Source: a virus. From it: DNA of 64,000 nucleotides. Of the stretch, positions 3,505 through 64,000 are shown piece after piece. The notes under the pieces are model-generated. The model worked only from the letters and a program-made list of their open reading frames with translations. It made no database searches and was not told where the DNA came from. Within the stretch, counting starts at the first letter, position 1, and every line of letters starts with the position of its first letter. The stretch is from positions 30,159 through 94,158 of the IMG/VR virus record IMGVR_UViG_3300032289_001637; one strand, written 5' to 3'. Both the position numbers and the translations under genes were made by a program.

Positions 3505-3659
3505 GATGATCCTCTTGTTAAAATAACTTGAGACATATGTCTATTTGAACAAAGCCAAGTTAGCTTCATATCTTCCCTATAAAATCTTGCAATCAAAACT
3601 AATTGCTTACATGAATGGCAAGAGAATTTTCCTCTGTACTCAGAAAAGTTTTTATACAT
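3501..3659 (-). CDS. Small Zn-ribbon protein (52 aa; not in ORF track)
   Basis: MYKNFSEYRGKFSCHSCKQ...LTWLCSNRHMSQVILTRGSS fills the gap between recA and the next gene, overlapping both. Confidence 0.7.
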   Translation of the reverse strand: MYKNFSEYRGKFSCHSCKQLVLIARFYREDMKLTWLCSNRHMSQVILTRGSS

Positions 3660-4665
3660 CTAATTTTGCTTCTAAGTCTAAGACTCTTTTAGGATCTTCT
3701 TTTAACCAATCAATAACTTTTGCTCTACCCTGCAATCGCTCTTCTCCTATGGTATACCAGGCTCCACCCTTTTGTATAGCACCAACAAGTTCTGCGGTAT
3801 CAACTAAGTCTGCAACCCTGTCTACACCCATAGATCCATCTCCATCGAAGTAGAAGTCGTAAGAACCTGCAACGAATGCTGGACCAGTCTTATTAAAATC
3901 AACGTGCCAGTTAACTACACGACCAATCTTAGACTCAATAATCTTATCTCCTGAAACTATCTTACCCTTAATTGCCTGATTGTCAGACTCACTTGACCAA
4001 AGTTTAACAATGGTACTACTAAAGAATTTAACAGCATGTCCACCAGTTGGTTGATGGGATGCAAACATTGCACCAATATTATTTCTTTGTTGAGAAATTA
4101 AAACAAGCAATGTTGGCTTATCATTATTATTTGCATAGTTAAGCATCTTTACTGCATTAGTCATGTCTCTTGCCTCTGCACCAATTTGTTTAGTATTTTC
4201 TAACTGCTTTAATTCTTCTGAATCTTTTTCAAAGTAAATAGCAGGAAGGAGTGCAGAGATAGAATCAACAATTAAAATATCTACGCCAGCTTTCATTAGC
4301 TGAACTCCAACGTCTACCATTTCATTTATACTTCTAGCATTTGAATAAATTAGTTGTTCTACATCTACCCCAAGTTTTCTTGCCCACTCTGGATCAAAAG
4401 ATGCTTCTGCATCAATCCAAGCACATATCTTTCCATCTTTTTGAGCATCAGCAATCATTTGTAAACAAAATGAAGATTTTCCTGCAGATTTATTTCCCCA
4501 AATAAGGACTTGACGACCATAACCAAACCCACCTTTTAGTGCATTGTTCAAACTAATGCTTGGAGTTTTTTGCTTAGTTATTTCAATAGTGTTTCCACTA
4601 GTTATTTTCTTACGCAACTTTGGATCTAATTGAGACAAAAACTCATCAAGGTCTATTTTACTCAT
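3652..4665 (-). CDS. recA: RecA/UvsX-like recombinase
   Basis: Walker A GNKSAGKS, WIDAE, IVDSISAL, PTGGHAVKF, GAWY. Confidence 0.92.
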   Translation of the reverse strand: MSKIDLDEFLSQLDPKLRKKITSGNTIEITKQKTPSISLNNALKGGFGYGRQVLIWGNKSAGKSSFCLQMIADAQKDGKICAWIDAEASFDPEWARKLGVDVEQLIYSNARSINEMVDVGVQLMKAGVDILIVDSISALLPAIYFEKDSEELKQLENTKQIGAEARDMTNAVKMLNYANNNDKPTLLVLISQQRNNIGAMFASHQPTGGHAVKFFSSTIVKLWSSESDNQAIKGKIVSGDKIIESKIGRVVNWHVDFNKTGPAFVAGSYDFYFDGDGSMGVDRVADLVDTAELVGAIQKGGAWYTIGEERLQGRAKVIDWLKEDPKRVLDLEAKLDV

Positions 4666-20356: not shown

Positions 20357-23300
20357 TAGTATCTACTACTCCTTAAATTTCCTCTATTTTGCTGTGAAAG
20401 CTTAGCCATTACAACATTTGCAATATCATCTGGACTTGCATCTGTACCAGCAACATTTACATTTACGTTGTATGTATTATTATACATTGTTTCAGGTCCT
20501 TGTGCTTTACCAGATTGAGGAATGTCGTATCTAGATCCACTAACTCCAAATGTTGGCTGACTCATTTCTGGCAATTCAAAAGCACCCAGATTAATTGCTT
20601 CAAGAAGTGGCATTCCATATTTTCCAACCATTGCTTTTCTTATTACAAATTCTCCAGGAGTTAGTCTTGCGGAAACACTGTCTAGACTTCCAATACCTGG
20701 AACAATTCCTCCAGTATTAAAATAGTTTGTTGATGCAATTGCTTTCTTTACAAATTTTGTAATTTCTATCTTTTTATCATTGCTAAGAGTTGCATACTTT
20801 TCATCCATTTCATCTGCTTTTACAGTATATGCTTTTGGATCTACATATCCCATTTTTTGAGCAATATAGTGTTGTTCTTTATTTTTACCAAAGGAAAGCT
20901 TAGAATTTAAAATACCTGCTTTAAATTCAGCTTTGGTATAAGGAACATAGGCAGCAACAGGGGATATGACAGGAGGCTTCACAGGAGTTGTTACAGGAGT
21001 TGCCACAGGAGTTGCCACAGGAGTTGTCACAGGAGTTGTCACAGGAGTTGTCACAGGAGTTGTCACAGGAGTAGGGGAAAGAGAGTCAACTTTTTCAACA
21101 ACAACTGGTGCAGCAATATTATCGGCTGTACCACCGCCACCACCAGTACCAAGAATTGTGTTATCAGCCTGTCCAGGAGTTCCAATTTTCTCAACAACTG
21201 CAGCTTTTTCTGCAACGTTATATGCATCAATATAGTCTTGCAAGTCTTTTAGTGCTTTACCAGTTAAACCTGCTGCCCTCAATGCTTCAATATTTTGCTT
21301 CATCTTTGTTAGCAATATCTTGTATTCTAATTTAGCTCTTTCCTTATCTATATCATTCTGTTTTTTAGAATTTTCATATATTGCATCTTGAACCACTTGC
21401 ATATCTTGTTCATTTTTGTAAATTGTTTCACCAAAAGAGGAGATTTGTTCTGTAATTTGCTTTCTTGTCATTAAGACACCATTTACAGATATAGATAGTG
21501 ACTCAAGTTCTTTTTGTCTTTGTGTTTCTAATGCAGCCCTTGCATCTTCAATTTGATATTGAGCATCTTGTGTTTGAATTTCACTAGCCATATTTGCTGC
21601 TGCTGCAATATCTCCAGATGCTAAGGCTGATGCTAATCCAACTCTTGAACGGTTTTGTTGATCAATTCTGTTATTTGCTTTTTCAACCTTATCAAGTGCA
21701 GAAATTCTATCATCATAAGTTTTATTAACCTTTTCTTCTTCTTTTGCAAGAAGATCCAAAGCATGGTTTCTTATATTTATTTGACGTTGTATTAATTCAT
21801 TTTCTCTTTCCATTCCAGAAAGTTTTGTTTCTAATGCTGAGTTTTCAAGAGTTATTGCTGAAGCTGCAAGATCTAACGTATCTAAAGTTCTTTCTTCTGA
21901 ACTCTTTGTTAAAAATTCAAGTGCTCTTTGAACATTTAATTGCTCTTTTAATGTATCTATATACTCTTTCTTTGCAGCAGTAGTAGAATGTTGATAAAGT
22001 TCTACATCTATCAATCCAGCAATTTCACCATTAATACCTTGAGTTACAAGTTGCTTGGTTATGTCTAACTGATCTTTTAATCCATTTACATTTTTCTTTA
22101 TATCTACAAGACCTTGTACTGCATTTAGTTTCTTTTGAGCCTCAGTTTGCTTATTTAATTCTTCAATATAGGATTTTCTTTGTTGAGTTGTCATAGCCAA
22201 GAATGCTTTTTGATCAATCATTCCTTCAACATCTGAATTTATTTCAACGCCTAGCTTATTTAATGCATCAGAATATTCGCTTATCTCTTTTGTTTGTTTT
22301 TTAGCATCAGCAAGTGCCATTGTTGCTGCTAGTGTAGATTGTGCCTGTACTTGTTTGTTTAACTCTGCAATGTAAACCTTTCTTTCTGCAGTGGTCATTG
22401 CTAAGAAAGCCTTTTGATCAATCATTCCTTCAACATCAGAATCTATTACAACTCCTAAACCACTTAGTACAGAAGAATAGTCACTCATCTCTTTTGTTTG
22501 TTTTTTAGCATCAGCAAGTGCCATTGTTGCTGCCAACCTAGTTTGTGCTGATGCTTGTTTGTTTAACTCTGCAATGTAAACCTTTCTTTCTGCAGTGGTC
22601 ATTGCAAGGAATGCTTTCTGATCAATCATCCCTTCAATGTCAGAAGTTATTACAACACCCAAAGATCCAAGTGTCTTTGAATATTTACTTAGGTCTGATG
22701 TAGCTTTTTGAGTTTCTGCAAGAACCATTACTGCATTTAATCTATTCTGCAATGCAATTTGAGATTGCATGGTCTTAATAAGGTCTGCTCTTTTATTTTT
22801 TGCAGTATTTAAATATACATCTTGAGGAATCATGCTAAGAGCTTCTACATTATTGGCATCTGCAACACCCTTAATCAGATTTGTATAATTTTTAATTTCT
22901 TTATTTTGACTCTCAGCATCTTTTAAGAATGTTACTGCCTGTTCTTTTTTAGTAGGAGGTTTTGTCCCTCCTCCTCCTCCTCCTCCATCTTCATTAAAAG
23001 GAGTTTGACCTGTACCATCAATGTTTAATGATTGAATAAAGTCTGCCTGATCTTTTATCTTTTTTGCATAGTCTGCTTTTATTTTTGCATTTGCTGCTGC
23101 TACCCCTGCACCACCTCTACCATCTGTTTCTTGTTGAAGCTGTGGCATTGCTCCAACTGTTTGCATTGCAATCACAAAAGATGTTAAATATGTTTTTTGC
23201 TGACTTGCAGGAAGTGCGTTAAATGCATCCACTTCTTTTTGAGTTGCATCATATCCAACTGATTCAAATACGGTTGTTAATGCTTTTTCATTATCACCAC

Positions 23301-55200: not shown

Positions 55201-57012
55201 TTATCCAATTACTACAACACGGTAAGTGTCAGCATTAATTGTTGTTGCACTATTGATTTTAATAGTTATAGCAGATGTTGATGTATGTTGTACATCTACT
55301 TCTACCTGTGCATAATCAGCAGCAACTTCATATACTTGAACTGTTACATCCTTGGTTCCAAGGTTATGTGTTACAGTCCATGTGCATACTCCAGCGGTTG
55401 ATGTTAGTGATGTATTGCCAATTGCATATTTCTTTGGGAATCCATCAGTTACTAACTTTGATTCTACAGAAGAAATATCAACAGCAAGACCACTACCAGT
55501 TGTCAAATAGCTTGTTGAAGCTGTAATGATACCAGCAGTTAATGTTCCAGCACTTCCAGAATTATCTGAATATGTGAAATCAATCGTTGAAGAGTCTGTT
55601 AGCATTGTGCCAACTGTATCTTCAACATACTCCTGTAATCCAGTTATATCAGATGTTGCATGTGTATGACCTTCAAGAGAGATAGCAGTTTCACTACCTA
55701 GCAATCCAGCTGACCACTTATCTGATGATTCATTCCAAATTAAAGAAGCATTGGTTGAATCACCACGCTCAACTTCAATACCTGCATTTGCTGCAGGAAC
55801 TCCAGTTACGTTGCTATTAAGGGTAATTTGATTATCCTCAACTAGCAAAGTTTCTGTATTTAAAGTTGTTACGCTTCCGCTTACAGTTAGATTACCAGTT
55901 ACACCAAGATTTCCTCCGATTGTTACATCGTCTGGAAGACCAACTGTAATTGCTCCAGCAGATGCTGAAACAGTTACTTCATTAGCTGTTCCTGTGATAG
56001 ATGTCACACCAGTATTAGTAATAACTAGGCTTGAACCTTCACCACCTGAACCAGTTACACTGATACCTGCACCAGATGCACTTGCACCTGATACATAGTC
56101 ACCAGTTGTATCTGTACCAAGAGCAACAGAGTTTGCTGCAATAGTTGCTTCAATCGTTACATTCTGACTTCCGTTAAAGTTAACGCTACCACTTAGATCA
56201 CCACTAAGACCTATAGACCTTTCTGTCTGTAAGGTAGAAGCAGTGCTTGCGTTACCAGTTAAAGCACCAGTTACGTTTGCTGTAATTGAGTCTGGAAGAC
56301 CAATTGTTACTGCTCCAGCAGATCCTGAAACGGTTACTTCATTAGCTGTTCCAGCAACGGATGTTACACCAGTGTTAGAAATGGTTAGAGTTGAACCTTC
56401 ACCACCTGAACCAGTTACGCTGATACCTGCACCAGATGCATTTGCACCTGCTACATAGTCACCAGTTGTATCTGCACCAAGAGCAACAGAATCTGCTACA
56501 ATATCTGCTGTAATTGTTACGTTCTGACTTCCGTCAAAACTAACACTACCACTTAAAGATCCACCAAGACCGATAGATCTTGCTGTCTGTAAGGTATTAG
56601 CAGTGCTTGCGTTACCAGTTAAAGCACCAGTCACGTTTGCTGTAATTGAGTCTGGGAGACCAATTGTTACTGCTCCAGCTGATGCTGAAACGGTTACTTC
56701 ATTAACTGTTCCAGAAACACTAGTCACACCAGTATTTGAAATTGTAAGAGAGTTACCAGCATCATCATAGTTTAATGATATTCCAGTTCCGCTATCAAGT
56801 AGATCATTTACTGCATCTCCAATAAGTTCAACAGAGCCAACGGGTTCCCATTGACTAGTTGTACCATTGTAGACTTTTAGCGACTGAATAACGGTATTAA
56901 AATAAAGTTGACCAGCAACTCCAGTACCTGGATCTGTAGCCAAATTATGTATAACACCATTTTGCAATTCATTACGATTTAAATCAATACTTGTTAAAAA
57001 TTTTCTAGACAT
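55201..57012 (-). CDS. Fibre/decoration protein with internal 120-aa duplication
   Basis: SVALGxDTTGDYV twice at 360-bp spacing; C-terminal VTHNLGT domain. Confidence 0.75.
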   Translation of the reverse strand: MSRKFLTSIDLNRNELQNGVIHNLATDPGTGVAGQLYFNTVIQSLKVYNGTTSQWEPVGSVELIGDAVNDLLDSGTGISLNYDDAGNSLTISNTGVTSVSGTVNEVTVSASAGAVTIGLPDSITANVTGALTGNASTANTLQTARSIGLGGSLSGSVSFDGSQNVTITADIVADSVALGADTTGDYVAGANASGAGISVTGSGGEGSTLTISNTGVTSVAGTANEVTVSGSAGAVTIGLPDSITANVTGALTGNASTASTLQTERSIGLSGDLSGSVNFNGSQNVTIEATIAANSVALGTDTTGDYVSGASASGAGISVTGSGGEGSSLVITNTGVTSITGTANEVTVSASAGAITVGLPDDVTIGGNLGVTGNLTVSGSVTTLNTETLLVEDNQITLNSNVTGVPAANAGIEVERGDSTNASLIWNESSDKWSAGLLGSETAISLEGHTHATSDITGLQEYVEDTVGTMLTDSSTIDFTYSDNSGSAGTLTAGIITASTSYLTTGSGLAVDISSVESKLVTDGFPKKYAIGNTSLTSTAGVCTWTVTHNLGTKDVTVQVYEVAADYAQVEVDVQHTSTSAITIKINSATTINADTYRVVVIG

Positions 57013-57896: not shown

Positions 57897-58193
57897 TTAT
57901 TTCTTATCTGCAATATATGCTACTAGAACATCGTGAATTACTTTTACTTCTCCAGTTAACTGCTTAACATCTGCTTTAATTTCACCTTGATTTTCTGACA
58001 ATCCATTTACTTTATCTGCAAGGCTTGAGCCACCATTTGGAAATATCTGATGCTCTACACGATCAAGGCGATCTGCTATAGTTCTACCCTTTTCATCTTT
58101 ACCAAGAATTCTTTCAAATTTTCTTAGGGTTGCATATCCAACGCCTAGAATGGCGGTAAGTGATAAAAACATTTGCCAGTTTTCAACAAACAT
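57897..58193 (-). CDS. Membrane protein with coiled coil (likely start MFVENW)
   Basis: N-terminal TM helix, PNGGSSLADKV motif. Confidence 0.6.
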   Translation of the reverse strand: MFVENWQMFLSLTAILGVGYATLRKFERILGKDEKGRTIADRLDRVEHQIFPNGGSSLADKVNGLSENQGEIKADVKQLTGEVKVIHDVLVAYIADKK

Positions 58194-58280
58194 AGATATT
58201 GAATTATTCACGATTTTATGGTACAATCTCCTATAAGACTTAATCACAATTATAACATATAAATAACATAGGAGTAACAA

Positions 58281-58499
58281 ATGCCTGAAACAAAAGTAAA
58301 AGAAAAAGTATTAAAAATTGCAGATCGTTGTGATAGATGTGGTGCTCAAGCATTTGTACTTGCTAGTGGAGTTTCAGGGGAATTAATGTTTTGTGGTCAT
58401 CATTATCACAAATATGAATATGCAATTACTCAATGGGCTTATAAGATTGTTAATGAATTAGATACTATTAATGAAAAGTCTGCAAGTAGTAATATTTAA
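58281..58499 (+). CDS. Small Zn-finger protein resembling a conserved actinobacterial family
   Basis: ADRCDRCGAQA...ELMFCGHH; AGGAG RBS; TGGTACAAT upstream. Confidence 0.75.
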   Translation: MPETKVKEKVLKIADRCDRCGAQAFVLASGVSGELMFCGHHYHKYEYAITQWAYKIVNELDTINEKSASSNI

Positions 58500-59359
58500 T
58501 CCCAGTATCCTGGTCCATAATTTTCAAGTGTTAAACTCCAGGTAACTGCTGGACCTACACCAACAGCATTTACTGCTTGAACTGTTAATTCATAATCTCC
58601 CCATGAACCACCTACTGAATAAGAAGTTGAATAATATGGAGAAGTTCCATAATTTAAGAAATAGTAAAGAATAGGGCTGCCGTTATCCGCAGGTGGATCC
58701 CAATAAAAGTTACCAGAAAGGTTTGCAGTTTGAGCACTTCCATATGAAGTTAGAGCACTTGGGACACCAGCAAAAGTAGTAGCACTTGTTGCAGGGTTTG
58801 TATTAGGACCAGCACCAACAGAGTTGTTAGCACGAACTCTATATGAGTATCCAGTTGCAGGAGCTAATCCTGTATCACTAAATGAAGTAGTTGATCCATT
58901 TGCAGTGGTGTGAATTGGAGTTTCGTTTCTACTAATTGTGTAACTGGTAATAGCAGCACCACCGTTGCTAGATGGAGCAGCCCAACTTAGGTTAATGGAG
59001 TTACTACTTGCTGCAGTGGCAGTAAAGCTTTGTGGAGCAGTAGGAACAGTTGCAAGGGTTGTTGTACTAACTGATGCACTTATACTAGATCCAATAGAAT
59101 TATTTGCCGAAACTCTATATGAATAACTAGTTGCATTAGCCAATCCTGTGTCATTAAATGAAGTAACTGATCCACTTGCAGTTGTATGAATTGATGACAA
59201 ACCTCTATAAACTGTATAGTTCGTAATTGGTAAGCCTCCATCAAAACCAGGTGCGACCCAATTTAAAGATACAGAGTTACTTGTAGGACTTGCGGTAAAA
59301 GATGTAGGAGAACCAGGAACAGTTGCTCCACCTTGAGCAATAACACCAACAGGAATCAT
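58496..59359 (-). CDS. FN3-domain virion protein (start MIPVGV, 59359)
   Basis: Two to three FN3 units; TAATG coupling to the upstream fibre gene. Confidence 0.8.
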   Translation of the reverse strand: MIPVGVIAQGGATVPGSPTSFTASPTSNSVSLNWVAPGFDGGLPITNYTVYRGLSSIHTTASGSVTSFNDTGLANATSYSYRVSANNSIGSSISASVSTTTLATVPTAPQSFTATAASSNSINLSWAAPSSNGGAAITSYTISRNETPIHTTANGSTTSFSDTGLAPATGYSYRVRANNSVGAGPNTNPATSATTFAGVPSALTSYGSAQTANLSGNFYWDPPADNGSPILYYFLNYGTSPYYSTSYSVGGSWGDYELTVQAVNAVGVGPAVTWSLTLENYGPGYWD

Positions 59360-60228
59360 TACTGTAAGTTTCCAATCAATACCCAAGTATTGGTCCCACG
59401 TTTAATCAAAGTTGCAGCAGACCATCTAGATTTAATTATGCGACTAGTAGCACCAGTAAGAGAATAGTAGTCAACTGTTACACTAGCAGAAGGAGAAATA
59501 GTTGTTGCACCAGCACCAGTTTGAATAACAGTAATTTCAGTACCAATTGGAAAAGCAACGCTTGCATTAAGTGGAACGGTAAGTGTATTAGCAGAAGCAT
59601 TGTTCATCTCAACATACTTACCAGCATCAGAAAGAATAAGAGTATAAGTAGTACCAGTTTGAGCATTAGTTGATGGATATAGTGGTGCATAAGTTGTAGA
59701 AGCAGATGCCTGGGTTAGGTAAGTTGTTGAGGCAGATGCTTGAGGAAGATACGTTGTAGAAGCAGATGCCTGGGTTAGGTACGTTGTTGAGGCAGATGCT
59801 TGAGGAAGATACGTTGTAGAAGCAGATGCCTGGGTTAGGTACGTTGTTGAGGCAGATGCTCTGGTTAGATAGTTTGTAGAAGCAGATGCCTGGGTTAGGT
59901 ACGTTGTTGAGGCAGATGCTTGAGGAAGATACGTTGTAGAAGCAGAAGCCTGGGTTAGGTACGTTGTTGAGGCAGATGCTCTGGTTAGATAGTTTGTAGA
60001 AGCAGAAGCCTGAGTTAGGTAAGTTGTTGAGGCAGATGCTGCAGTTAAATATGCTGATAAATCTGAACTATCTAGGAAATAATCTAAAGCAGACCAAACA
60101 CTTGATCCATTTCCAATTTTAAATTTTCCAGTATTTGTTTCAAATCCAATTTCACCTGCAAAAAGAGTGGGATTAGCACTTGTCCAGTTTGCTGCGGTAT
60201 CTCTTCTTACTTGAATTTTAGTTGCCAT
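59359..60228 (-). CDS. Fibre protein with Mtd_N-like N-terminus and 10-aa repeat stalk
   Basis: IQVRRDTAANW...GEIGFETNTGKFKIGNG; 12 TTYLTQASAS-like units; C-terminal NAQTGTTYTL domain. Confidence 0.8.
   Translation of the reverse strand: MATKIQVRRDTAANWTSANPTLFAGEIGFETNTGKFKIGNGSSVWSALDYFLDSSDLSAYLTAASASTTYLTQASASTNYLTRASASTTYLTQASASTTYLPQASASTTYLTQASASTNYLTRASASTTYLTQASASTTYLPQASASTTYLTQASASTTYLPQASASTTYLTQASASTTYAPLYPSTNAQTGTTYTLILSDAGKYVEMNNASANTLTVPLNASVAFPIGTEITVIQTGAGATTISPSASVTVDYYSLTGATSRIIKSRWSAATLIKRGTNTWVLIGNLQ
59690..60052 (-). repeat. 30-bp tandem array (TTYLTQASAS x12)
   Basis: Directly visible 30-bp periodicity. Confidence 0.95.
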
Positions 60229-60274
60229 AATAATTAATTATATCATTAAAGATTAATTATAATTCTGCAAACTA

Positions 60275-61762
60275 CTACAATTCCGCACTAAATCCGATAT
60301 AGCCAGAAGATGAAAGAGAAAGAACAATTCCCTCACCAATGGTAAATACTGAACTCCCATGTGTGTAAGTAATTGTTGGAATACCTATTGCTTGTAATGT
60401 AGAAGTCAAAACAGTAGTTCCTGTGTTGTATAAAGTCCCAGCCGAAGCAAATCTTGAAACAGAAAAACCTGAAGAATCAATAGATGAAGCTTGAGTTCTA
60501 AGTGAATTTACTGCAAGAACAGGAGCATTAATACCAGTTGCAGAAAACGCATATCCCGTGCCGATAAGAGATGTAGAACCATTGCCATTTAGTCTGTGGT
60601 AATACCTTCGACACAATTCTAGTTCTATACCAACATGTCTGTACTCAAAAGGGGTAGCGGTTGAACCTAGTTCTAGTTGTAAGCCTGTAACTTCAAACCA
60701 GTCATTAGCACCAGCAGTGCCAACTGGTGTTTGAAGAAGAAGAATTGATAGTGAAGACATAGTACTTGAAATAGTTGCTGTATAAGTAAAGCGTTGCCAA
60801 GAAGTAGTTAAAGTTGCTGTACTATTAAGTGCATTTGTTTGATTAGTCATACCATTACGAACAGATTCGTCAATACCAGTTCCTGTAACCAGTTGTACGG
60901 TTAAGGCGTTTGAAGCAGCTGAGTAGTTAGCTCCAGCACGAGCGTAAAAAGATAAGGAAACAGTCCTTCCTCTTAAAGCCCAAGCGTTAGCGGTCTCAAT
61001 ATGTTGAGTAAAAGCAATTGCTGCAGTGGATATATCACTTGCTATACGCTGAACACGAAGTGCGTAACGAAAATTTGCAGGAATTGTTGCGGTATCAGTA
61101 CTTTGAGACCAAGAAGCTCCTGAAGCTAACCCTGCTCGGTAAACATTCCAACGATCTGCTGTGTAAACAGTAGATGCACCAATAGCTGTAGGACTAGCTG
61201 TAGTAGGTGCACCACGTTGCCAAATATCCATTTCACCATTAATAATTAAGTTACGAAAACCTGTTTGAGCTGTTGGAACTATTGGTGCATAAGTGCTTGA
61301 GGCAGATGCTTGGGTAAGATAGGTACTTGAAGCAGAAGCCTGGGTAAGATAGGTACTTGAAGCAGATACCTGAGGAAGATAGGTACTTGAAGCAGATGCT
61401 TGGGTAAGATAGGTACTTGAAGCAGATGCCTGAGGAAGATACGTTGTTGATGCAGAAGCCTGGGTTAGGTATGTTGTTGAGGCAGATGCTCTGGTTAGAT
61501 AGTTTGTGGAAGCAGAAGCCTGGGTAAGATAGGTACTTGAAGCAGATGCCTGAGGAAGATACGTTGTAGAAGCAGAAGCCTGAGTTAGGTAAGTTGTAGA
61601 GGCAGATGCTCTGGTTAGATAGGTTGTTGATGCAGAAGCCTGGGTCAGGTAAGTTGTAGAAGCAGAAGACTGAGTAAGATATATGACTGAGGCAGATGCC
61701 TGGGTAAGTAGGGATCCTAGCTGAGATGATGAAGCTGTTCTAACAACTGTTACATTTGCCAT
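60275..61762 (-). CDS. Fibre protein with 10-aa repeat stalk and carbohydrate-binding-like head
   Basis: 14 repeat units, then FRNLIINGEMDIWQRG...QLELGSTATPFEYR...CRRYY. Confidence 0.8.
   Translation of the reverse strand: MANVTVVRTASSSQLGSLLTQASASVIYLTQSSASTTYLTQASASTTYLTRASASTTYLTQASASTTYLPQASASSTYLTQASASTNYLTRASASTTYLTQASASTTYLPQASASSTYLTQASASSTYLPQVSASSTYLTQASASSTYLTQASASSTYAPIVPTAQTGFRNLIINGEMDIWQRGAPTTASPTAIGASTVYTADRWNVYRAGLASGASWSQSTDTATIPANFRYALRVQRIASDISTAAIAFTQHIETANAWALRGRTVSLSFYARAGANYSAASNALTVQLVTGTGIDESVRNGMTNQTNALNSTATLTTSWQRFTYTATISSTMSSLSILLLQTPVGTAGANDWFEVTGLQLELGSTATPFEYRHVGIELELCRRYYHRLNGNGSTSLIGTGYAFSATGINAPVLAVNSLRTQASSIDSSGFSVSRFASAGTLYNTGTTVLTSTLQAIGIPTITYTHGSSVFTIGEGIVLSLSSSGYIGFSAEL
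61290..61711 (-). repeat. 30-bp tandem array (TTYLTQASAS x14)
   Basis: Directly visible 30-bp periodicity. Confidence 0.95.
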
Positions 61763-61770
61763 AATGATTA

Positions 61771-61779
61771 ATTATACCA
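61771..61779 (-). promoter_or_regulatory. Extended -10 promoter TGGTATAAT heading the structural block
   Basis: 8 nt upstream of ATG 61762; similar TGnTAnAAT elements precede many minus-strand genes. Confidence 0.7.
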
Positions 61780-62434
61780 TTTTAAAAAATTCGCAAAAAA
61801 TCCGCAAATTAAAAACGCAAAAATCGGCAAAATAGTATAACCCACCCCCTTATATAAATATACAGCTACGCTGTTCTTTGTTATATATGGAGGATTTTTT
61901 GGGGGTTTGAATTATTATATAAATATGCAGATATTCCCTATATGAAGAATATGCCAGATATGTCTATATTGTCAACATGTTAATAAGAATAAAGGATGCT
62001 AACGCATATGACCAGAAATGAATTTAATTAACCCCGAAAATATACAAAAATAGATGTTTTTATTTATTAACTGCCAGATAGTGTAGACATTAAAATTGCT
62101 ACTATTATAATCCAGAAGATGTATCTATAGTATTCTTTATTACTCATGTGTTTCTCTTTCTTTTAATAATTTCATTCCCCTGCCCCCCGAATTTTCTAAA
62201 ACTTTTTTGATTCGCTGCACTCATAGTGTAATTGCATTTTTTATACTTGTCAAGTTGAGCTGCCAGAAACATTGAACTATTGAATTATTTGTAACACAAT
62301 TGTAACATATCATCTCACATATTGAGATATATATTCATTACCCCGCAAAATCTGAATATTTTTATTTTTGCAGCTAGATCCCATTTTGAAGAAAATCTGA
62401 ATATTTTGTTAATGTGTATGATGCGTAAAAATAG

Positions 62435-62461
62435 AAAAAGCTCACCTTTTTATTAGTGAGC
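62435..62461 (-). terminator. Intrinsic terminator of the leftward early operon
   Basis: GCTCAC-loop-GTGAGC-TTTTT right after the stop at 62470. Confidence 0.7.
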
Positions 62462-62469
62462 CCATCTGG

Positions 62470-62655
62470 TTAGATAATTTGAAAGTCTTCTACCTCTTGG
62501 CAGTTCAAACAATTTTCTAAGTCTTCACAATAGCAACCGTGAAATTCTCCTGCACAGTCTTGACAATAGAGAACACTAGTTGACTTTTTATTTTTAGAAT
62601 TGAAAGCCTTTCCAATTCGATGTCCTGGATGTTCTAAAGTTATAGAATTAATCAT
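62470..62655 (-). CDS. Small Cys-rich early protein
   Basis: CQDC...CYC...CLNC; third gene of the leftward operon. Confidence 0.6.
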   Translation of the reverse strand: MINSITLEHPGHRIGKAFNSKNKKSTSVLYCQDCAGEFHGCYCEDLENCLNCQEVEDFQII

Positions 62656-63014: not shown

Positions 63015-63036
63015 AACTTAGCAGATACCACCGACA
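63015..63036 (-). promoter_or_regulatory. Early-type promoter repeat TGTC-N9-TGC-TAAGTT (leftward)
   Basis: Same spacing as the three rightward copies. Confidence 0.65.
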
Positions 63037-63082
63037 AAATCAAGCCAGAAACGCCTTTTTGAGATGAATAGTTAGTGAACAA

Positions 63083-63229
63083 TAACTCACAGGTTATCCA
63101 CAGGATCCAGGCTGCGCCCCGTTTTCCACAGGTTATCCACAGCCTGTTAAGAAGTTGTTAATAAGTCCCCATTTTCTATGTATAAGTTGTGTATAACTAC
63201 TATGATTTATGTGTATAAGTTGTGAATTA
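63083..63229. promoter_or_regulatory. DnaA-box cluster
   Basis: TTATCCACA at 63094 and 63133, TTTTCCACA at 63122; reverse TTATACACA at 63188 and 63210; three degenerate copies. Confidence 0.75.
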
Positions 63230-63277
63230 ATTGTTCATCTATTGTTCATTTAACTACCCCCCTAAATGGGGCAAAAT

Positions 63278-63299
63278 TGTCAGACCCCTCTGCTAAGAT
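63278..63299 (+). promoter_or_regulatory. Early-type promoter repeat TGTC-N9-TGC-TAAGAT
   Basis: TGTCAGACCCCTCTGCTAAGAT. Confidence 0.7.
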
Positions 63300-63810: not shown

Positions 63811-63941
63811 TGAACATTTGCCAAAACTGTGATGAATGGTCAGAATGGAAATCCTGCCCTGCCTGTGATGAATCTATCTGTGGCTATTGTGTCTACTATG
63901 TAGAGCAAGACCTAGCCAACTGTGACCGATACGGTCACTAA
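63810..63941 (+). CDS. Small Cys-rich early protein (start MNICQNC)
   Basis: TAATG coupling; three CxxC motifs. Confidence 0.65.
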   Translation: MNICQNCDEWSEWKSCPACDESICGYCVYYVEQDLANCDRYGH

Positions 63942-63945
63942 AAAC

Positions 63946-63967
63946 TGTCAGACCTCTATGGTAAGAT
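63946..63967 (+). promoter_or_regulatory. Early-type promoter repeat
   Basis: TGTCAGACCTCTATGGTAAGAT followed by an ACAAACGAAAGG leader. Confidence 0.7.
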
Positions 63968-64000
63968 AAAACTAATAAACAAACAAACGAAAGGTTGCCA

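Follow-up and report, generated by a model that had tools for sequence, protein, structure and literature searches.

The array of DnaA boxes located between the two gene arms of this phage is best explained as two early-promoter modules standing back to back, both promoters of which would be modulated by the DnaA protein of the host, a reading that we hold with moderate confidence. In the mechanism proposed, each of the divergent promoters would be served by three conserved upstream boxes and one weak one, all of them facing the promoter and centred approximately 80-130 bp before the predicted start of transcription. On infection, host DnaA would bind the boxes cooperatively, because boxes spaced 11 or approximately 21-22 bp apart share one face of the helix, and DnaA located on that face would alter the use of both promoters by host RNA polymerase. 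Activation is likelier than repression because the boxes are situated far upstream. The first transcription of the phage would be tied in this way to the amount or the nucleotide state of the host replication initiator, and more distant relatives appear to place CRP-type sites at equivalent positions. We infer DnaA binding, the identity of the promoters and the direction of the effect from the sequence.

An earlier interpretation of the same DNA (the sequence-only reading) had offered three options for the locus: recruitment of host DnaA to start phage replication, as an oriC mimic; sequestration of DnaA, as a sponge; or coupling of early transcription to the host. The last of these fits the data best, while the oriC mimic and the sponge are the poorer fit.

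Setting of the array and promoter-like motifs

The window, that is, the whole stretch of DNA analysed (64,000 nucleotides), corresponds to bases 30159-94158 of a 94,158-bp virus record obtained from lake water. The record is classed as a linear fragment with an estimated completeness of approximately 87%, and its ends are therefore taken to be assembly breaks; the array lies approximately 750 bp from the record end. Both ends fall inside repeated promoter/leader modules (window 63941-64000 and, at the record's start, positions 1-24 of locus L001). In contigs of three runs the end of the window is followed by a sequence like that of 63113-63142 and then by a promoter, which suggests that another tandem-box module lies in the unassembled gap past 64000.

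Genes for portal, capsid, a very long tape measure and tail fibres were identified in the record, together with genes for a DnaB-like helicase, a DnaG-like primase, DnaE, RecA and RuvC. The portal shares 52% identity with its counterparts in large Streptomyces phages, among them Comrade (52%), which is without a comparable box cluster. A WhiB-family protein is encoded at record 20621-20788 on the minus strand (locus L392; E 5e-14), which indicates an actinobacterial host, and an uncultured phage of freshwater actinobacteria is a reasonable reading of these genes. Near-identical DNA was found in metagenome runs, with small shares across many lake-water runs; all of the matching entries were contigs, and RNA runs were absent from the listing. 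A DNA search of a phage collection with a 2-kb stretch gave no match.

Between 6.4 and 93.1 kb of the record nearly all genes are on the minus strand, and a short plus-strand unit begins at window 63394 and continues at the record's start. The array sits in the 410-bp gap that separates these two arms, which is the main divergence of transcription. The features of the region are given below; identities are to G005, a related contig that is 82% identical over 1.4 kb.

63015-63036, minus strand: leftward early promoter-like motif (core word, 10 nt, -10-like hexamer); predicted start at approximately 63008; 98% identical in G005
63062-63084, plus strand: left flank with two RTGAAYART-like words 11 bp apart, inverted relative to the right flank (inverted repeats I1, I2 and I5)
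63083-63091, plus strand: degenerate DnaA-box-like word with two mismatches (one mismatch in G005), a doubtful binding site
63094-63102, plus strand: exact DnaA box, the nearest to the leftward promoter, 57 bp from its core word and centred at approximately -90; 9/9 in G005
63103-63121, no strand: GC-rich spacer with a GC-rich word adjoining the next box; 19/19 identical in G005
63122-63141, plus strand: tandem exact DnaA boxes (63122-63130 and 63133-63141), 11 bp apart; 18/18 in G005
63142-63176, no strand: central spacer between the half-arrays, 35 bp, moderately AT-rich; 91% identical in G005
63177-63196, minus strand: tandem DnaA boxes, 11 bp apart (63177-63185 with one mismatch, 63188-63196 exact)
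63210-63218, minus strand: exact DnaA box, the nearest to the rightward promoter, 59 bp from its core word and centred at approximately -92; 9/9 in G005
63221-63249, minus strand: one-mismatch box-like word (63221-63229), then two ATTGTTCAT words 10 bp apart; 33-37% identity to G005
63278-63299, plus strand: rightward early promoter-like motif; predicted start at approximately 63306; 22/22 identical in G005

On each side of the array there is a repeated promoter-like motif, in which the -10-like hexamer has TG before it. The leftward copy is at the head of a short unit of three small ORFs (62982 down to 62470), beyond which lies a terminator-like hairpin (62463-62438), and five more plus-strand copies head the small genes that follow them (window 63548 and 63946; record 1164, 2650 and 5241). 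We infer from their sequence that the motifs at 63036-63015 and 63278-63299 are promoters, and the setting between divergent early promoters, as described in the sequence-only reading, is consistent with a motif of this kind on each side. Against the promoter-module reading it must be said that the motif is without a canonical -35 element and was missed by a scan with the sigma-70 consensus.

The flanks of the array had been described as inverted, and this is borne out by arms at 63062-63084 and 63220-63249 which are 75-100% complementary. Inverted flanks are present in G001, a complete relative of 101.7 kb, and in locus L128, and are absent in G005. Tandem words like those of the left flank occur in G001, G005 and locus L335, and a flank like 63221-63249 occurs in L128.

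Two features of the neighbouring DNA were recorded. The interval 61763-62470 consists of 700 bp of AT-rich non-coding DNA with phased A-tracts of 11-bp period (61784-61832), an extended -10 late-type promoter directed towards a tail-fibre gene, and a 16-bp AT-rich word that occurs twice, at a distance of 65 bp. The tail-fibre genes at 58001-62000 have a GC skew of +0.14, compared with -0.1 to -0.2 for all other minus-strand genes, and this is probably due to their repeat-rich, Ser/Ala/Thr-rich composition or to recent acquisition.

DnaA boxes and their conservation in relatives

Based on the consensus TTWTNCACA, five exact DnaA boxes and one near-exact box were identified in 63094-63218. The window thus has five exact boxes within 125 bp and five across its remaining 63.9 kb, where approximately 13 would be expected per 64 kb of shuffled sequence; the Poisson probability of five boxes in 125 bp is approximately 1e-10 per span and approximately 5e-8 when corrected for position. 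On re-reading of the sequence the array was found at 63062-63250 as had been described, and the exact 11-bp spacing claimed for four pairs of boxes follows from their coordinates (63083/94, 63122/33, 63177/88 and 63210/21). The number of boxes, originally given as eight, needs qualification: six are supported (the five exact ones and 63177, which is exact in relatives), whereas the outermost two, 63083 and 63221, are weak and the latter is unconserved.

The exact 20-mer formed by the tandem pair at 63122-63141 (two boxes with a GG spacer) was found in more than 120 bacterial and some archaeal-labelled assemblies from many phyla, where approximately one occurrence would be expected by chance, and often lies within longer 11-bp-periodic box arrays (loci L215-L334). 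Because it is so widespread, and so often found amid further boxes, it is regarded as a natural DnaA-binding arrangement. Its use for inferring the host was dropped, since it is too common across phyla.

The 9-mers might instead be bound by a protein other than DnaA, such as another regulator of the host, or a phage factor that is made early or delivered with the virion, their match to the box being coincidence or mimicry. Dyad-symmetric arrays, and the near-palindromic box pairs only 2 bp apart that are found in some relatives, would suit a dimeric binder, and further conserved words (the GC-rich word, the flank repeats and the promoter core word) surround the boxes. However, the 9-mers are exact matches, in three accepted variants, to the universal 9-bp DnaA consensus, their occurrence singly, in 11-bp tandem pairs and in both orientations is that of bacterial DnaA sites, and the first promoters must work ahead of any phage protein synthesis. 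Of the explanations considered here we judge this one the least probable.

Conservation of the boxes in relatives, which had been suggested as a check, is evident in G005, where all of the exact boxes are kept. Segment by segment, identity to the window is 100% for the exact boxes, 23% for the spacer at 63197-63209 and 37% for the right flank, with 3/9 (33%) for the box-like word at 63221. The box at 63177 is exact in G005 and in the related strains of runs X2-X4 (G at 63178), and a 10-bp insertion in the right half of G005 converts an 11-bp box spacing to 21 bp. For related-strain contigs of three other runs, few differences were listed in the gap and many in the adjoining genes. Six boxes are thus under selection, being kept while the spacers drift; the outermost two are doubtful.

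In the complete relative G001 the homologous array is split by an insertion of approximately 550 bp, within which are a further promoter and a small gene, and the two halves stay with their own promoters at distances of 57 and 48 bp. Four further early promoters of G001 have boxes of their own, and a module recurs in this genome which consists of a GC-rich word, a box, an AT-rich repeat, a short C-rich word and a promoter. The sequence-only reading had allowed that the segment might be a host-derived chimera; that idea was dropped, since the array is also present in several contigs of related phages, which come from different samples.

A GC-rich word (GCGCCCC-like, in either orientation) adjoins many DnaA boxes, for example in the modules at 4261, 6430, 7472, 8205 and 9193 of locus L212. 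The word at 63103-63121 is fully kept between G000 and G005, and a related word abuts boxes in the G001 modules.

Box-to-promoter geometry and CRP-type sites

The survey of box positions covered 198 distinct promoter modules from related phage loci, representing 115 sequence clusters, of which 38 have a DnaA box or a perfect CRP-type palindrome at most 140 bp upstream. The distance from the core word to the nearest promoter-facing box was 15, 34-36, 44-47, 56-59, 67 or 78 bp, a ladder of approximately 10.5-11 bp (about one helical turn) in which 56-59 bp is the commonest class. The Rayleigh R at a 10.5-bp period was 0.70 with a nominal p of 3e-5, but these values are non-independent and inflated by shared ancestry, which weakens the promoter-module reading to that extent. 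Boxes less than 60 bp from a promoter all face it, except for the outer box of one convergent pair (38 bp), and all three spacer indels between orthologous modules (3/3) are of 10-11 bp.

In the window the boxes are 57, 85 and 96 bp from the core word of the leftward motif, and 59, 81 and 92 bp from that of the rightward motif. Judged by these distances each half-array is an ordinary promoter module of the commonest class, and the dyad symmetry of the locus arises because two such modules stand back to back. The DNA upstream of the motifs is enriched in boxes: in this record 1.7% of the DNA holds five of 15 boxes (p 4e-6), and in G001 13% of the DNA holds seven of nine (p 2e-5). Several box modules per genome are present in the relatives. 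As at DnaA-regulated promoters, the boxes are situated in the control region, 57-96 bp from the core words of the putative promoters, and both position and orientation appear constrained by the ladder, the indels, the facing of the boxes and the split halves of G001, with the statistics inflated by shared ancestry. Two observations run counter to the promoter-module reading, namely that six to eight phased boxes exceed the need of most regulated promoters, and that the arrays of some relatives adjoin no promoter motif (G010).

Relatives with DUF932 protein identities of 60-65% have perfect 16-bp CRP-type palindromes upstream of many early promoters. Seven were found in 8 kb of L095 and eight in 12 kb of L149, with others in L156 and L101, compared with a chance expectation of approximately 0.01 per 10 kb (our own estimate, based on ten specified bases). 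These palindromes lie 28, 38 and 48 bp from the core word and sometimes adjoin DnaA boxes; single ones occur in L202 (2127-2142) and L335 (1029-1044). In G005 a perfect CRP-type palindrome takes the place of the box-like word at 63221. The same module skeleton would seem to accept either host-regulator site, as transcriptional input would look, and the palindromes suggest that a host cAMP-receptor-type regulator feeds phage early transcription in the relatives. The only perfect CRP-type palindrome of the present record, at window 55993-56008, is inside a 360-bp coding repeat of a 603-aa structural-region gene and is probably fortuitous.

The same geometry bears on whether the array could be a sink, which would hold host DnaA as phage genomes multiply and so stop host initiation, any effect on the promoters being secondary. 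Its boxes are of the high-affinity type, phased at 11 bp and strongly conserved, and in relatives 5-12 exact boxes are distributed across the early regions, or seven follow one another with a 21-bp period away from promoter motifs. In E. coli, datA is a non-origin cluster of DnaA boxes. DnaA-holding clusters outside the origin also exist in B. subtilis (PMC2533591), and the phage array resembles both in being intergenic, in having approximately five or more strong boxes and in being not obviously an origin. Those clusters, however, serve the host's own initiation control, whereas the phage array is a strong-box cluster with promoter-linked geometry. A sink needs neither a fixed orientation nor helically phased distances to promoters and would not favour indels of 10-11 bp, and the exchange with CRP-type sites at the same position of the module suggests regulatory input, not titration of one protein. 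We consider a sink very unlikely.

Modulation of promoters by DnaA has precedent in bacteria, where the protein is established as a transcription factor at dnaA and nrdAB of E. coli, dnaA and sda of B. subtilis, and gcrA and ftsZ of Caulobacter, and the lambda origin promoter is a further established case (PMC8203912). Such cellular promoters likewise have consensus boxes, often several, in the promoter region, and their output follows the level and nucleotide state of DnaA. The present promoters differ in being of a lytic-type phage, with boxes far upstream at approximately -80 to -130, and in belonging to what appears to be a portable module, one that many early promoters share and whose boxes give way to CRP-type sites in relatives. 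Promoter-early stem-loop cassettes of T4-type phages, reportedly described by Arbiol et al. in 2010, are similar in that they are repeated, portable early-promoter cassettes located at gene boundaries which also break assemblies. We know of no host-regulator binding sites in the T4-type cassettes. In the literature searched, DnaA boxes within phage early-promoter modules were undescribed; the search returned only software predictions of origins for two phage genomes, and lambda.

If host DnaA does control these promoters, a group of abundant lake phages would read the host initiator as an input to their first genes, and their relatives would read a CRP-type regulator likewise. This would be a simple, DNA-encoded way of sensing whether a slow-growing cell is worth exploiting. 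The locus is a clean test object, being a 240-bp fragment with six conserved sites, two putative promoters and natural variants.

Possible origin function and other box arrays of the group

A further possibility is that the array is the replication origin of the phage, at which host DnaA on the convergent boxes would melt AT-rich DNA and help to load the DnaB-like helicase. Transcription from the flanking promoters might assist, as at the lambda origin, and such a function may coexist with promoter control. Several observations agree with it. Six to eight phased boxes is a number typical of origins and of DnaA-holding loci, the tandem pair is identical to one widespread in bacterial genomes, and the array is located at the main divergence of transcription. 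Helicase, primase and DnaE are encoded without a recognised initiator, as had been pointed out in the sequence-only reading, and initiator or loader families are still absent among the proteins scanned. An 80-bp stretch of the right half has a GC content of 23%, at the 2.6th percentile of the genome, but this relative AT-richness comes mainly from the boxes. These last two points, the missing initiator and the AT-rich half, also count against the promoter-module reading. The other non-coding gaps checked gave no iteron-type candidate, and the distant relative L390 has an eight-box array beside repeated words in a 900-bp gap.

Pfam DnaA domains (DNA-binding and ATPase) were absent from this record and from five relatives, including the complete one; any DnaA involved would therefore be that of the host. 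An iteron-type origin is not indicated, since the flanks hold only two plus two repeated words and no protein family was matched by the adjoining ORFs (43-68 aa).

The bacterial unwinding module comprises a box/box pair, a spacer of at most 16 bp, at least three DnaA-trios and then AT-rich DNA (PMC8287927). The window has a box cluster with a closely spaced tandem pair, and resembles bacterial oriC (PMC8287927) in the 2-bp gap of that pair, in its additional boxes and in the AT-rich DNA nearby. It differs in having no conserved trio run: three trio-like triplets only, a minimal run, are found 13 bp past the tandem pair (63141), they are unconserved, and the AT content is moderate. A trio-based unwinding element was accordingly considered and set aside as unconvincing. 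Because both sets of boxes point inward an unwinding site would be expected in the central 35 bp, but this space is unconserved and measures 2-15 bp in relatives (2 bp in L335, 15 bp in G003 and 14 bp in one G001 module). An origin of the oriC type is also expected once per replicon, at the switch in strand composition, whereas the relatives have several promoter-tied box modules per genome, the array of G001 is split by an insertion, and the turning points of the GC skew, 6375 and 88425 of the record, coincide with changes of coding strand and lie away from the array. The cumulative GC skew, which had been put forward as a check, proved uninformative, since it follows the coding strand. Finally, an origin gives no role to the phasing of boxes with promoters. 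The case for a phage origin copying oriC is weak, and we regard an origin at this site as unlikely.

In phage lambda the boxes are downstream of the promoter, and the phage has its own initiator, the O protein. The present locus differs in its two divergent promoters with upstream arrays and in that no initiator was recognised. The two are alike in the presence of host DnaA near an early promoter and in a link between transcription and the start of replication, which is here proposed. Activation of the lambda origin is reported to need DnaA-stimulated transcription (Szalewska-Palasz et al. 1998, PMC22473, cited in PMC8203912). A dual use may accordingly be imagined, in which the array would gate the first two promoters through DnaA and would, in addition, be the site at which the DNA is opened by host DnaA and the phage helicase loaded. 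We think this combination rather improbable, more so than an origin by itself; were it true, early transcription and the start of phage replication would both be licensed by a signal of the host's readiness to replicate.

Box arrays with other settings were observed in more distant loci. In L393 (G010:26700-28000) seven co-oriented exact boxes with a strict 21-bp period are located at approximately 570-705 of the locus, in very AT-rich non-coding DNA between converging genes and with no early-promoter motif nearby. This array appears to be a better candidate for an origin or a DnaA trap than that of the window. With arrays of this sort in the group, an origin or a locus that retains DnaA is a real possibility among these phages, and the array of the window might have such a function too, perhaps alongside promoter control. 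In L390, where the DUF932 protein is 48% identical, there are eight boxes (1767-1945), divided five and three by orientation and pointing outward, followed in the same 900-bp gap by approximately eight copies of a TCTAGAAC-like word (2040-2200). Three more boxes are found just past the DUF932 gene (3516-3558). Since some arrays adjoin no promoter motif, the DnaA boxes of this group need not share one role.
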